64,000 nucleotides of DNA from a virus (Duplodnaviria > Caudoviricetes). The position numbers were made by a program, and so were the translations under genes. The stretch is from IMG/VR virus record IMGVR_UViG_3300026549_000895, positions 128,001 through 192,000 of that record; one strand, given 5' to 3'. This document shows, in pieces, positions 5,358-49,360 of this stretch (position 1 is the first letter of the stretch; each line of letters starts with the position of its first letter). The notes under the pieces were generated by a model. The model was given only the letters and a program-made list of their open reading frames with translations. It searched no databases and was not told the origin of the DNA.

Positions 5358-6566
5358 ATGGATGAAGAGTCCAAATATTCTTATTCCACCGAAGAACTTG
5401 ATGCAATATTAAGAAAGATGGAAAAAGGAATCACACCAATAATTCCAGATGATATGATGAAAGAAGTTCTACTTCGTAAACGTGAATTGGAATTATTGAG
5501 AACAGGCGATGATGAAGACTTGGAAGAATATCTGTCCGAGGTCGAGAAACATAAAAAACTCACCAGAGCCCTGAAGGAACGAGAACACAAGGCAACAAAA
5601 ACAGAAGCGTATGTATATACAATGACTCCTGAACAATTAAAAGAAATCGAAGAGGATATGACAACCACCTTTGTTAGAGAGAATCCAAATTCCCCATATA
5701 ACAAATCTTCCTTTGATTCTGAAATGTCCGAAGAGAAGCGTGAGATATTAATTAAATTATCAAAGCTTCGCAATTGTTATTATAATCAGAAGGATTATCA
5801 GGAGGCTATTGAAACTATTCGAAAAGCAATTGAGATATCTTTGAAGACTGATTATCCTTGGCTTTCTCCAGAAGAAGCAATACGTAAATTCAAGAATAAA
5901 GAAATCGTATATTCTTTCGGAGCTCTTCCCAAGATATATCTCAATTATATCACACCAGTAACAGATCCGGAAATGGCTAAGAAGATAGCATCTGGAGAAA
6001 TTACTCTTGTTGATAAGAATGAGAATCGTCCCAAGAAGAGAAGAAGGAAGAGTAAAGAAGGAGTCACTGTCGAAGTTCGTCCTATTGGTAAACAAGAAAT
6101 TGAAGATGAACGTAAGATGTTCAATGCAGGATATGATTCCAGTATTGCACCTATGCTCAAGGGAAGTGTTAATGCATATGGTAGATTCGATATGCCAAAT
6201 TCTGGATATTTCCATGATGATATTGAATCTCCTTATGAGCAAGAAAAAGAAGATATGCTTAGTGATTTTGATTGGCTCCAAGAGGATGCTGCTGAGAAGT
6301 ATTATAATCTGCTCAATAATATCGATGATAAGATGACAGTATATGATCTTCTCAAGGATATTCAGAAAACTCGGAATATTGATATCAATCCAGCAGTTGG
6401 CAATAATATGACTGATTTCTTGAATTCATATAATCTTGGTCCATCTGAATATGACAATGTTGCATATTCTTCACATGGTTACGCAAGATCTATAATCCAA
6501 CCAAATCAAAAGGCTTTGGAGATAGAGGAGCAATTGTTGGAAAATATACGTAATTCCAATCCATAA
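5358..6566 (+). CDS. Hypothetical protein, 402 aa
   Basis: Long ORF, GAAAGGAG RBS, early-type motif at 5324-5335, followed by a terminator. Confidence 0.75.
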   Translation: MDEESKYSYSTEELDAILRKMEKGITPIIPDDMMKEVLLRKRELELLRTGDDEDLEEYLSEVEKHKKLTRALKEREHKATKTEAYVYTMTPEQLKEIEEDMTTTFVRENPNSPYNKSSFDSEMSEEKREILIKLSKLRNCYYNQKDYQEAIETIRKAIEISLKTDYPWLSPEEAIRKFKNKEIVYSFGALPKIYLNYITPVTDPEMAKKIASGEITLVDKNENRPKKRRRKSKEGVTVEVRPIGKQEIEDERKMFNAGYDSSIAPMLKGSVNAYGRFDMPNSGYFHDDIESPYEQEKEDMLSDFDWLQEDAAEKYYNLLNNIDDKMTVYDLLKDIQKTRNIDINPAVGNNMTDFLNSYNLGPSEYDNVAYSSHGYARSIIQPNQKALEIEEQLLENIRNSNP

Positions 6567-6583
6567 TTTCTATGCTATATGAG

Positions 6584-6613
6584 ATACCCCGGGAAACCGG
6601 GGTATTCTTTTTT
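6584..6613 (+). terminator. Rho-independent terminator
   Basis: ATACCCCGG-gaaa-CCGGGGTAT followed by a T-tract. Confidence 0.8.
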
Positions 6614-6634
6614 CCGGATTTTTTGAAATTTCAT

Positions 6635-6822
6635 ATGTATATTATTAATATGAATAAGAGATAAGAATCCCTTAATCAGAATCAGATTCAAGCCTCATAA
6701 GGCAAATATAAAATAATAGAATCTTTAGATGTCTGAGTAATATATCTTATCATCTTACGATATTATGGGTTATCCGAAACCCAATACAATTCGGGAATGA
6801 TGTTTACCAAGCATCAGAAAGG
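6635..6822 (+). ncRNA. Conserved structured leader/ncRNA, copy 1 (promoter motif, ~100-nt stem-bubble-stem, pseudoknot, hairpin)
   Basis: Core 6671-6745 closely matches 48796-48867. Pairings TAAGAGATAAG/CTTATCATCTTA, TCAGA/TCTGA, AGATTC/GAATCT, GCC/GGC. Confidence 0.6.
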
Positions 6823-6829
6823 TACATTT

Positions 6830-7165
6830 ATGACTAACGATTTCAGAACAATTATGGGTATTGAAGAAGAAAGCACACCCACAACAACAGAAACAAAAGA
6901 AGCTACAACCTTCCAGAAGGTTGTATACGTTGCAGCAGGCGTAGGCGTCATAGCCGGTGCAGCCCTCGTAACTATGAAGGCAGCAGACCACCTCACAGCT
7001 GAAGTTGTCGGCGGTGTAAAGGCTGCAAAGGCTTGGAAGGCTACAAGACCTACCAAGCTCGATAAGGAAGTCGCTGCACGCGATGCATTCGCCAAGAGCC
7101 TCAAGGACGCAGGCTGGGAAGATGATAAGATTCTCGAAGCTTGTGTAAACAAGTACGGTTTCTGA
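6830..7165 (+). CDS. Small predicted membrane protein (cassette 1 cargo)
   Basis: GAAAGG RBS before ATG 6830; hydrophobic VVYVAAGVGVIAGAALV segment. Confidence 0.75.
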   Translation: MTNDFRTIMGIEEESTPTTTETKEATTFQKVVYVAAGVGVIAGAALVTMKAADHLTAEVVGGVKAAKAWKATRPTKLDKEVAARDAFAKSLKDAGWEDDKILEACVNKYGF

Positions 7166-7174
7166 TCAAGAAAG

Positions 7175-7213
7175 GAAACCCCGCATATGCGGGGTTTCTT
7201 TTTTCTTCTTTTT
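7175..7213. terminator. Bidirectional terminator
   Basis: GAAACCCCG-catatg-CGGGGTTTC with T-tract on + and an A-rich 5' flank, between convergent genes. Confidence 0.85.
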
Positions 7214-10200
7214 TCATTCGATTAAGATATAATCATTTCCAGCGGTAGTCTTTAAATACATACCAGCATATTCAGAAGGTATTGACAATGTCACACCAAG
7301 TCTCATAACAGTTACAATTCTTTCAGTATTATTAGTATCTGAAATATCGGCTGTTGGATCCTTTGTTATATACACTGAGAAATATCCTTCGTACTTTCCG
7401 GAAGTATGCACATCATATGTATCATCTTCTGGATTGTATTTGCAATGTAACTGAATAAATGTTTCATCACCAGTATCAGAAACATACTCAAATGAAGTAT
7501 CCATATCAAAGTCAGTTAAACGTTCATACTTCCAAACATCGTTCAACATTTCCATCATCATTTTAGCATCTATTTCAACACCCTTCAAATCATCCAACAA
7601 TACATTCTTTACTGTTGTTCCGTTTATAGAAATATCATAATAGGAAGAAGATGATTGAACAATGTCAAGCATAATGTCATGTTCGATATCAGCATTGTTC
7701 GGGTTGTCTACATAGTTGCCTAAATATGTATCAATTGTAGATGAATTGTTTGTACCAAATCCAAATCGAATTGATTGTTTAACATACTTGGAAGCATCTT
7801 CATTATGCAACATTACTTGTTTCATAGATGAGCATCTCTTTCCATCAAGTGTTTCATAAACAACCGATCTATGGAAAGTAGGCGAATCCTGATAGTAATC
7901 ATCGCATAATTCAATGACTTCAAAGTTCCTCAGAGATCTGAGGTTAACAAGTTGCAAGGTAGTAGGAGATGTTATAATAACATTCTTTTTTGTCAAGTAT
8001 CTACCATTTATCCAGAATTCATATCTATCAAATGAAAGAGGGGTTGGAATGTATCCTGTAAGATCAATGATGCCATTTTCATTTATCATTGATTTTGAAT
8101 ATCTGCAGACATGTAAACATGTTGTGGATATCAACTGAACATCCGGATTATCTTCTTTTGAAAGTTGTAATCTTGATGAATAGTTATCAGATGATATATT
8201 TGAGAATGGTAATCTGTAATGATGTTTCGTATCATAATAGTATGAATATGGAGTTAATGGTCCAAAGTCTGATTCTGAACTCTTTTCAGATAAATAAGCT
8301 GTACCTGCAACATTATGTGAATATCGTACTTCTATTTCTGAATCCGATAAGTATGATACATCTCCAAATGTTTGGTTTTCCGAAGAATCAAATGTTGTCA
8401 CATTTGGATATCTGTGGAAGGTATGTTGAATATTCCAAACATTGTTAGCATTGTCAAAATCAAACTTACTATTTGCTGGAGTGAAGTCATCAGAATATGC
8501 CAAGTACGCATTACCCTTTTGAGGTGATGAGAAAGTTATCGTGATTGTATTTGCATCCGTATAAACCAAATCACCAAGTAAAGTATTTCCAAATTCGTCC
8601 TTTGCAACTATATACGGATATTGATTCAAGTTATGAACTATTGTCCATACAGCAGAAGCCGTGGTTTGAGTGAACGTAAAGTTTCTTGCTATTGTATTAT
8701 TTGAATAATACGCTGATTCAATATTGAGATACAAAGGATTCTGATCAGATATACTCAACTGAGTCTTTGGAATGAGTAAGAATTTTTCAGGAAGTTCATG
8801 ATAATAAGAATAAGAATCTTCTATCTTAACATAATCCGTGAAAGTTTCTGGTGTGTCATTGTTTTCGATTGTTATTGTAATCAATCCACCTTCGCAAGGA
8901 TACTCATCATTTCGAGCGCATGTGAATACAAATGTACCAGTCGTCCTATACGGAACTTTGGAATCAACTACACGCAATCTTTGCTCATGTTCTTGTGTAT
9001 AGTATGTTCTACAAACAAGAACGATATTTGATACGTTTCCATTGAATGAAGCAACATCGTCATTCTGAATGCATATCAGATTAATATCTAATCCATCCTG
9101 GAAAGAATCGATTGGTTTGTTGATTGTTATTGTATATTCCGGATTGTATTCAGTATATTCAACCGATACATCCCTGAACGGGTTTGGAACATACAAATCA
9201 AAATCCAAATATGATAACATTTGTGTTGAATCATATCCGGTTATATGATGGAATCTGAGAACTGGAATTTCGTCATATTCGTCACAGTATCTCTTTCTAT
9301 CGACTATAATTCCTCTATCATCATAATCAAATTCTGTGAATTTGTATTTCTCGATGACATCGAAATGTTTTCTTACAATGATATTTGAATACAAAGGATT
9401 TCCTTCTGCATCATTATAATGGTGAGAAGAAGTTGTCAATACTGGTTTGAATACAACATTACATATTCCATCATCATTTAACTGAATATCATCATAGATA
9501 TCAGATTTGTAGTATCCGAAGTATACATACAATTTACTTGATGAAATAGACTGGTCAAGCTCGATGATTATCTTTGTATGAACATTGTCGGTTTTGTAAT
9601 TACCTGAAACATCTACGTTCATCTGATTCTCAACTTCCGTTGAAACTGTATACAACTCAGGAGATATCCAAACATGATGTTCTTGGTCATATAAGAAACA
9701 ATCAATCTTATCGGTATAAATTAAATCACGAATATCATGTTTAATATAAGCATCAGCCATTACCGCTTTACCGTTGTCGATGTATATCATTGCAGCATCA
9801 TTTGATACTACATTGAACCAAGATGTTGGTTTCTCCAATTCATCATATAAGTATTGAACCTTTTTGATACGTTGCTCCAAAGAAACGTTCTCCATCTTCA
9901 GATGATCGATTTGCGCTTGGATTCTATCTTTTTCTGATTGGTCAGTTACTCGTGCTTTTTCTGCTTCATATCGAGCAATAGACGATTTGTTTGCAGATAT
10001 TTTACTTTGTGAAGAATAGATATCCTGATAGAATACTATTTTCTCTCGTTCCCATATAGCTTGATCATTTGGTTCTGTTCTGAGAATAGGATATTCTTCC
10101 TGAGGTGTTAATGGAGAACGATAATGATTCAATGCATTTATAACAATCTTTTCATCAAAGGAATTTGTTGTTGTTATGAACTGCATATCATATTTCTTAT

Positions 10201-48684: not shown

Positions 48685-48709
48685 TATCCCCGGGTTTATC
48701 CCGGGGATA
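48685..48709 (+). terminator. Terminator hairpin
   Basis: TATCCCCGGG-tttat-CCCGGGGATA. Confidence 0.75.
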
Positions 48710-48756
48710 ATTTCTATGCTATGACAAAACAGGACTCGATTATTTTAACTTTTCAA

Positions 48757-48949
48757 ATATATATTATTAATATGATAAGAAGATAATAAATGTCTCTTAA
48801 TCAGAATCAGATTCAGCCTATATGGCAATTATAAAATATGAGAATCTTAGATGTCTGAGTAATATATGAATTATCTATCTTACACATCACAGCCCACCAG
48901 AAGCTGAGATTCTGGGTAGGATGCAAAAGCCAATGCATCTAAAGAAAGG
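48757..48949 (+). ncRNA. Conserved structured leader/ncRNA, copy 2
   Basis: Same core as 6671-6745; closing stem TAAGAAGATAA/TTATCTATCTTA; downstream pseudoknot and hairpin of different sequence but the same topology. Confidence 0.6.
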
Positions 48950-48956
48950 AAAATTT

Positions 48957-49313
48957 ATGGCTACCATGAAATTCAAACTCGACAAGCTTGAGCAGCGTTT
49001 CCAGGAAAGAAACATTGCAGTAGAAGGATGTGAGCTTGAAATAGAATTTGAACTCGCTGAACTGCCGGGAATAATCAAAGAAATCCCCACTGTAATTAAT
49101 TCAATTTCAGCAGCAGCCGAAAAGAGCAACTCCCGTGAATGGGAGAAAGTATGTAATGAAATAAACGAAGCTAATGACAAGCTTCGTGAGACAGAACGCA
49201 ATTTGCGCGGAGCCGAAGCGCGTGCTGAAGCTGCAGAGCGGAAAGCTCAGAGAAAGCAGGAAGAAGTTGAAGAACTTCGCAAGAAATGCTTCGGAACTCC
49301 TGCTGAAAAGTAA
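48957..49313 (+). CDS. Small coiled-coil protein (cassette 2 cargo)
   Basis: GAAAGGA RBS before ATG 48957; E/K/R/A-rich C-terminal coil. Confidence 0.7.
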   Translation: MATMKFKLDKLEQRFQERNIAVEGCELEIEFELAELPGIIKEIPTVINSISAAAEKSNSREWEKVCNEINEANDKLRETERNLRGAEARAEAAERKAQRKQEEVEELRKKCFGTPAEK

Positions 49314-49320
49314 GAAAGAT

Positions 49321-49360
49321 AAACCCCACCTTTCGGTGGGGTTTTCTTTTTTCTTTTTTA
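49321..49360. terminator. Bidirectional terminator
   Basis: AAACCCCACC-tttc-GGTGGGGTTT plus T-tract. Confidence 0.85.

Follow-up and report, generated by a model that had tools for sequence, protein, structure and literature searches.

The DNA analysed (hereafter the window) comprises bases 128001-192000 of a 239,830-bp IMG/VR virus record (36% G+C) from a jumbo phage, and the element under study is a long hairpin that occurs in it twice on the plus strand (copy 1, 6654-6758; copy 2, 48775-48883), in agreement with the coordinates given in an earlier note made from the sequence of this window. Each copy lies in a leader that contains, in order, the long hairpin, an H-type pseudoknot, a second hairpin (P5) and an exposed ribosome site within ~175 nt, and each leader belongs to a cassette that consists of one early gene (monocistronic) with intrinsic terminators on both sides and a large convergent gene beyond. 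In cassette 1, the intrinsic terminator of the upstream gene P0001 (5358-6566) was located at 6583-6606 on the plus strand (10-bp GC-rich stem and T tract), the Shine-Dalgarno sequence AGAAAGG at 6816-6822 precedes the start codon at 6830 of the open reading frame (ORF) P0003 (6816-7165 with the ribosome site, plus strand), and the cassette is closed by a bidirectional intrinsic terminator at 7169-7204, which faces a convergent gene of 2434 aa and at which weak leader- or terminator-like Rfam matches were obtained. The corresponding features of cassette 2 are the terminator of the upstream gene P0002 (48685-48709, plus strand), AGAAAGG at 48943-48949, the start codon at 48957 of the ORF P0004 (48943-49313 with the ribosome site, plus strand), and a bidirectional intrinsic terminator at 49321-49344. 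P0003 (111 aa, a predicted single-pass membrane protein of no known family) and P0004 (118 aa, a coiled coil with no family above threshold) are unrelated to each other, and no usable information on the function of either came from Pfam, PHROGs or the protein atlas.

The two copies of the hairpin are 84.8% identical, with an alignment of ~85% identity over ~130 nt. Diagnostic 20-mers shared by them were found exactly twice each in the window (a count of two was reached in 0 of 100 shuffles), and the copy number in the whole genome was also two, as determined by BLAST and by a covariance model (R1) over the 239,830 bp; neither a third, diverged copy in the genome nor a likeness to a TnpB guide-RNA region was found. 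On the plus strand, model R1 scored 97 bits for copy 1 and 102 bits for copy 2, versus 22-23 bits on the minus strand at the same two places. Each copy folded alone formed a stem-loop-stem structure (z = -3.8 for copy 1 and -3.0 for copy 2), and the pairings proposed in the earlier note (TAAGA/TCTTA, GATAA/TTATC, TCAGA/TCTGA, ATC/GAT, AGATTC/GAATCT, and GCC/GGC) were all present in the minimum-energy fold. From the fold and pair counts, copy 1 was divided into P1 (6655-6666 with 6745-6757, A6752 bulged), an internal loop (6667-6671 facing 6741-6744; 5 nt vs. 4 nt), P2 (6672-6683 with 6728-6740, G6731 bulged), and P3 (6684-6689 with 6719-6724, next to a UUA bulge at 6725-6727), all on the plus strand; P4, which covaries, is formed by 6692-6695 with 6700-6703, and an A-rich loop, J4/3, occupies 6704-6718.

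Homologues were collected from relatives of the upstream proteins and their contigs and by one pattern scan of metagenome contigs, and the resulting set contained 15 distinct sequences (the 2 window copies and 13 further sequences from related metagenomic phages). Both loci are represented in it, and on one 235-kb contig both were found together (L142 for locus 1, L134 for locus 2). The copy-2 sequences of different phages are closer to one another than to the copy in their own genome, which indicates that the duplication is older than the clade and that both copies have been retained. In nucleotide identity to its relatives (72-83%), the hairpin equals or exceeds the coding DNA on either side (upstream, 71-74%; downstream, 60-64%), and in the more distant locus-1 relatives (L131-L133) the whole cassette is absent. 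With 6400-7300 as the query, the INPHARED phage collection yielded no match in distant mode, a 17-mer scan of viral contigs gave chance matches only, a structured pattern scan of viral contigs gave 0 matches, and single-protein locus searches of viral contigs with P0001 and P0002 gave nothing. The comparison with Rfam that the earlier note had called for revealed no family at the gathering score in the window, and at E-values up to 10 no match on the element, ribozyme families included, only weak terminator-like matches 3′ of the small ORFs.

Covariation across homologues, the lack of which the earlier note would have taken as a refutation, was found. Standard pairs made up 93.5% of the cells of P1, P1b (an extra helix between P1 and P2, described below), P2 and P3 in a 12-sequence alignment and 93.7% in the 15-sequence alignment, versus 31-48% when the 3′ partners were slid by 1-3 columns as a control; six pairs were altered on both sides, and the covariation score was matched in 0 of 500 shuffles. 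Compensatory and G-U changes were located in P2 (UA/CG, AU/GC, and CG/GC/AU where the window has an A-G mismatch) and in P4 (variants GCCU/AGGC, UGCC/GGCG, GGAUA/UAUCC, and UCCU/AGGA). The first description of the element as a conserved paired structure with its differences in loops can thus be restated as an RNA-level structure in which stem changes are compensated. Throughout the set, P3 (AGAUUC/GAAUCU), three pairs of P2 (P2a, AUC/GAU), the bulged G, and the loop motif UAUAAAAU are unchanged, and they are invariant in both paralogue lineages while the adjacent helices covary. At least 15 cells of the hairpin alignment are G-U pairs, at which the other strand would have A-C. The conserved hairpin is a structure of the RNA, on the plus strand.

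Whole-leader MAFFT alignments gave inconsistent registers for P4, the pseudoknot and P5, and these helices were parsed sequence by sequence, with some optimisation bias. The pseudoknot of copy 1 (6766-6795, plus strand) consists of S1 (6766-6770 with 6779-6783), S2 (6773-6778 with 6790-6795), and the loops L1 (6771-6772) and L3 (6784-6789), and that of copy 2 (48890-48915, plus strand) of S1 (48890-48893 with 48903-48906) and S2 (48897-48902 with 48910-48915). In an exhaustive search, copy 1 scored 27 against a shuffle mean of 9 (reached in 2 of 100 shuffles), the score of copy 2 was reached in 0 of 100 shuffles, and scores over 12 sequences ranged from 26 to 34 against shuffle means of 2-9, each reached in 0-2 of 100 shuffles. 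All homologues have the pseudoknot in this position, with stems that covary (S1, TGGGU/ACCCA, CAGC/GCUG, UAGGC/GCCUA, and UAUAGC/GCUAUG; S2, CCGAA, CCAGAA, CCAGU, and UCUGAU with their partners) and freely varying loops. The pair changes read from the per-sequence parse, and subject to its bias, were UA/CG, GC/AU and four pair types at position 4 in S1, and AU/UA, AU/GC and CG/AU/UA in S2. The linker between the long hairpin and the pseudoknot tolerates a change of length, as is shown by a tandem duplication of ~21 nt (GCAATATTATCTATATTGCAATATTAT) in one homologue (L127:3928-3950). P5 (copy 1, 6799-6815, GATGTTT/AAGCATC, abutting the ribosome site; copy 2, 48919-48940, GGATGCA/TGCATCT; both plus strand) begins 3 nt past the pseudoknot and ends 0-3 nt before AGAAAGG; it is present in every homologue and covaries, its sequence being almost wholly different between lineages. 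AGAAAGG was unpaired in all folds, and the leader was found to contain no terminator, no U-tract terminator and no anti-Shine-Dalgarno segment; by eye, no conserved pairing was seen between the A-rich loop and either the linker or the spacer before AUG. Early genes of this phage seem generally to be built with a hairpin against the ribosome site, and a second conserved type of leader, with GGATATC-loop-GATATC immediately 5′ of AGAAAGG, was observed in three others (G000:C1 108659(-), 53136(-), and 121345(-)).

Directly 5′ of the element, at both loci, lies a promoter-like 25-nt motif (TTTCAWATRTATATTATTAATATGA) that the earlier note had overlooked. It has the form TATATTAT-6N-G, as in AR9 and phiKZ, and was located at 6629-6653 for copy 1 (TTTCATATGTATATTATTAATATGA; core TATATTAT at 6638-6645; predicted +1, G6652) and at 48751-48775 for copy 2 (TTTCAAATATATATTATTAATATGA; core at 48760-48767; predicted +1, G48774), both on the plus strand. 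In the Bacillus phage AR9, the early promoter AAATATATATTAT-(6N)-G(+1) was defined experimentally and is read by the virion RNA polymerase (PMC5312081), and in phiKZ and phiR1-37 transcription likewise starts 6 nt past the consensus (PMC5312081). The promoter of copy 2 is an exact match to the AR9 consensus AAATATATATTAT-6N-G, and the motif also fits the early motif TTTYARRYAKATATTATYWWADTG predicted for OBP and N1M2 (PMC7058600). Genome-wide, ~23 copies of the motif were found before genes, each with a ribosome site and an ORF downstream, and these gene-facing sites, together with the fit to the published consensus, bear out the proposal that the phage uses early promoters of the phiKZ/AR9 type. 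An RNA polymerase beta-like ORF of 1411 aa (PHROG 3148, E = 3e-139) and a short beta′-like ORF of 460 aa with RNA_pol_Rpb1_2 are present in the window; of the putative split multisubunit RNA polymerases (virion and non-virion) of the phage, these two ORFs are the parts that the analysis covered.

The minimum-energy hairpin of the first 45 nt begins exactly at the +1 G at 12 of the 23 early-type sites, with a median overhang of 1 nt and a mean z of -2.2. On the basis of the AR9 6-nt rule and these sibling hairpins, we infer that the RNA starts at G6652 and G48774; the predicted transcripts would thus begin 2-3 nt before P1 with an overhang of GA or GAA. The frequent hairpins at the +1 G may reflect protection of early mRNA or an initiation property of the phage polymerase. 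The likeness to the AR9 and phiKZ early promoters extends to the TATATTAT core, the 6-nt spacing and the G, to an AT-rich TTTCA box upstream, and to the dozens of copies before non-structural genes. The leaders differ: phiKZ 5′ untranslated regions are mostly 31-40 nt (PMC8244752) and ordinary early leaders of the present phage 28-96 nt, whereas the two element-bearing leaders are 158-177 nt and highly structured. The region 6623-6651 and its equivalents also read as promoters of the sigma-70 type (TTGAAA or TTGACT, 17 nt, TAATAT), which the RNA polymerase of the host might use as well. The 25-nt promoter has a third exact copy ~33 kb past the end of the window (G000:C1:225103-225345, L003); the RNA that it drives, ~210 nt long and highly structured, closes with an intrinsic terminator and includes no convincing ORF, and its pairing with the two leaders (from G000:225127) gave duplex energies no better than with shuffled leaders.

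A more distant locus-2 relative (L152, upstream protein 44% identical) bears a mini-leader (L152:2560-2680) composed of the promoter, a hairpin of P1 only, the pseudoknot, P5, GAAAGG, and a homologous ORF. Its hairpin consists of the P1 strands alone (AGAUAAGAU-loop-AUCUUAUC), P1b-P4 being absent; since the rest of the leader is kept, the interior of the hairpin can be regarded as a separate module. The element would then be a P1 stem of the L152 type with P1b-P4 set into its apical loop, and the sequences allow either a gain of the interior elsewhere or its loss in L152, which in any case offers a natural deletion control for the interior. The start at 2649 assigned by the gene caller in L152 is probably wrong, as an ATG at 2677 follows GAAAGG.

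Taken with the covariation, this arrangement makes it highly probable that the element is part of a cis-acting structured leader RNA. Its function is best accounted for by a stabiliser combined with a docking site, an account held with slightly better than even confidence and drawn from comparative sequence data; the stabilising role is one that we infer, as are the existence and identity of a trans-acting factor. Transcription from the AR9/phiKZ-type promoter would start at the G located 6 nt past TATATTAT, and P1, beginning 2-3 nt further on, would seal the 5′ end against 5′-end-dependent decay. For RppH of B. subtilis, the 5′ end has to offer a minimum of 2-3 unpaired nucleotides and a G in second position (PMC3997798), and against this requirement a 5′-terminal helix with a GA(A) overhang of 2-3 nt should hinder decay. 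The pseudoknot and P5 would serve as a rigid spacer that keeps AGAAAGG single-stranded for the ribosome, and the outcome would be a stable, well-translated early mRNA. The interior (P1b, P2, P3, P4, and the A-rich loop) would be an add-on module in the apical loop of a generic 5′ hairpin, and its invariant kinked core (AUC/GAU, AGAUUC/GAAUCU, the bulged G, a bulge of 2-3 nt, and UAUAAAAU) probably docks a trans-acting factor. An invariant core amid covarying neighbours, in both paralogue lineages, points to sequence-specific recognition by one such factor, which would treat both cassettes alike; host RNase III and a dedicated sequence-specific RNA-binding protein of host or phage are equally possible candidates.

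With the leaders of E. coli ompA and papA and the 5′ stabilisers of B. subtilis, the element shares a hairpin a few nucleotides from the (predicted) 5′ end, a predicted overhang too short for RppH or 5′-end-dependent RNases, and an open ribosome site, a design found again in most of the phage's early leaders; unlike those short and sequence-tolerant hairpins, it measures ~105 nt, comprises four helices with an invariant core, and has a pseudoknot downstream, and its stabilising role is a predicted one. The pseudoknot of the T4 gene 32 leader nucleates binding of the gene's own product on an unstructured A/U-rich tract. Like it, the pseudoknots described here are compact and H-type, have no linker between the stems, and precede the start codon by a few tens of nucleotides; they differ in that the two downstream proteins are unrelated and that a hairpin, not an open tract, follows.

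Several points weigh against the combined account of stabiliser and docking site. P1 and P3 are nearly invariable and by themselves give weak testimony on pairing. The promoter also reads as sigma-70-like (TTGAAA-17-TAATAT), from which the start would fall ~6 nt further downstream, inside P1. Searches of the phage for RNase III, dsRBD, CsrA, S1, and S21 genes found none, so that no phage partner can be named; a search for RegA gave no match either, but its control was also silent and the result is uninformative. A pure stabiliser would need no invariant core and a factor site would have no obvious need of a pseudoknot; the two halves of the account thus rest on different evidence.

The same core might instead serve processing as its main role, by RNase III cleavage at the pseudo-symmetric bulged core or by self-cleavage as a new ribozyme, after which P5 would protect the newly made 5′ end, as in a RiboJ-style insulator; this proposal and the combined account overlap if RNase III is the factor. 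P1, P1b, P2, P3, and P4 together form a near-continuous helix of ~35 bp with a central asymmetric bulge flanked by mirror boxes (GAAUC/GAUUC), which is the geometry of an RNase III substrate (a helix of at least ~20 bp with a central bulge), and the hairpin that generally abuts the ribosome site in the early leaders of this phage would suit such a role. The RNase III hairpins of T7 (R1.1 and others) and of the early leaders of the Bacillus phage SP82 likewise have the form of stem, asymmetric internal loop or bulge, and stem, extend over at least two helical turns, and occur in early transcripts in several sequence-conserved copies per genome. They are, however, intercistronic or shorter, cleavage of the present element is only a candidate event, and the search above found no RNase III gene in the phage. 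As no ribozyme family matched at E-values up to 10 and the mirror symmetry is broken in L129 (GGAUC for GAAUC), processing as the main role is considered unlikely, although the processing element of the earlier note stays among the live candidates. A comparably low probability is given to the interior being a new class of regulatory RNA domain, aptamer or docking site, carried by selected phiKZ/AR9-like early mRNAs; if it is one, the interior would have entered a generic 5′ hairpin as an inserted module, and it could bind a small molecule, or a factor of the phage or the host, on which the fate of these early messages (timing, localisation, processing or decoy action) would depend.

A riboswitch, in which the long hairpin, alone or together with the pseudoknot, would serve as the aptamer for a small molecule governing both early genes, would be in keeping with a complex, conserved and covarying leader that has invariant nucleotides in bulges and an internal loop and stands in two copies before unrelated genes, and it would have to be a new class, as no known class matched. 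The invariant bulged G, the context of the 2-3 nt bulge and UAUAAAAU are as compatible with protein binding as with an aptamer, and no expression platform was found: the ribosome site is never sequestered and the leader has neither terminator nor competing helix. With pseudoknot and P5 loops that are not conserved and an interior that L152 dispenses with, this explanation is held to be distinctly improbable.

Antitermination, or release of a trans-acting small RNA from the 5′ untranslated region, was also considered. HK022 (putL/putR) and lambda (nutL/nutR) carry two antitermination sites per genome behind early promoters, and the present hairpin, 5′-terminal and bulged as TAR is, likewise occurs in two copies, each right after a strong early promoter. 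The transcription units, however, end ~500 nt on at bidirectional terminators facing convergent late genes, beyond which read-through would yield only antisense RNA of 7-12 kb, and no complementarity to a target was found for a small RNA in the co-promoted noncoding RNA or elsewhere in the genome; a put-, nut- or TAR-like role or a small RNA is therefore very unlikely.

The earlier note had proposed that the hairpin is a 6S-like decoy, mimicking an open promoter for the phage RNA polymerase, in which the 3′ side of a conserved bubble (GTAATATAT) would present the promoter sequence. GTAATATAT does have ATATATTAC as its reverse complement, and ATATATTAC is similar to the TATATTAT core of the phage, but the supposed conservation of GTAATATAT did not hold: it is kept only in the subclade nearest the window and is replaced by TGTCTATAT or TGTACATAT in 5 of the 15 homologues, from which it follows that the likeness to the promoter core is not under selection. 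The bubble itself is the small and variable internal loop between P1 and P2; in 12 of the 15 sequences the extra helix P1b (ATAT/ATAT or AUGU/AUAU) closes most of it, leaving 1-3 nt per side, and the GTAATATAT segment is largely paired within P1b and the end of P2. The conserved single-stranded part of the hairpin is the A-rich J4/3. The RNA is an mRNA leader without a 3′ end of its own, as no terminator follows the hairpin (terminators stand only at 6583-6606 and 7169-7204 around copy 1) and the transcript runs on into the pseudoknot, P5, the ribosome site and the ORF, and no Rfam 6S match was obtained at E-values up to 10. The element resembles 6S RNA in being a long imperfect hairpin of roughly similar length, and differs in that it is not free-standing, has no large conserved central bubble and does not conserve the mimicking sequence. 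With the segment neither conserved nor mostly unpaired and the RNA not free-standing, there is no basis for an open-promoter mimic, and this more exciting possibility, now exceedingly improbable, is removed by the analysis.

The antisense-promoter and cruciform (promoter or operator) readings of the earlier note, for which a sigma-70-like CAGACA-18-TATAAT on the minus strand inside copy 2 and the inverted repeat within each core strand (GAATC-A-GATTC) could be adduced, are extremely unlikely, since they leave unexplained the G-U cells (A-C mismatches in a minus-strand hairpin) and the model scores of ~100 bits on the plus strand vs. ~22 bits on the minus strand, the '-35' box becomes CGGGCA or CGGACA in relatives with compensation on the partner strand of the RNA helix, the half-site spacings are unequal (1 vs. 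4-5 nt), and a sigma-70-like consensus scan finds equally many sites by chance.

Structured mRNA leaders of phages that combine a 5′ hairpin with a pseudoknot are of a known kind; what is new is the architecture of the present one and its location behind early promoters of a jumbo phage, and this leader is a candidate for a new entry in an RNA family database. In jumbo phages that have RNA polymerases of their own, early mRNAs appear within minutes of injection and need to withstand host nucleases and be translated ahead of any phage protein; to our knowledge, almost nothing has been reported on control at the RNA level at this stage. The leader, a covarying structure of 175 nt in three modules kept at both syntenic loci across a clade of uncultured phages, together with its L152 variant, provides a defined object for the study of how chosen early genes are stabilised or co-regulated.

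Upstream of the early promoters, a 14-nt motif (AATTTCTATGCTAT) was found on the plus strand in identical form at 6565-6578, at the stop codon of the upstream gene, and at 48709-48722, next to the terminator of P0002, and motifs of this type are conserved in relatives. Its shorter form AATTNTCTATGCTA occurs eight times in the genome (the further sites being G000:C1 121419(+), 222214(-), 45931(-), 39794(-), 6305(-), and 1133(-)), in five cases beside a terminator, with a consensus early promoter 35-60 nt downstream. TATG is the core of the phiKZ late promoter. Judged by its sequence, the AATTTCTATGCTAT/AATTNTCTATGCTA motif, which contains TATG, may represent a second promoter class, and the cassettes may thus have dual early and late promoters like the 'continuous' genes of AR9. 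Consensus early promoters with long leaders were also observed at G000:C1 39758(-) (~154 nt) and 1106(-) (possibly ~400 nt), and these leaders have strong 5′ hairpins and further helices with a sequence unrelated to the element.

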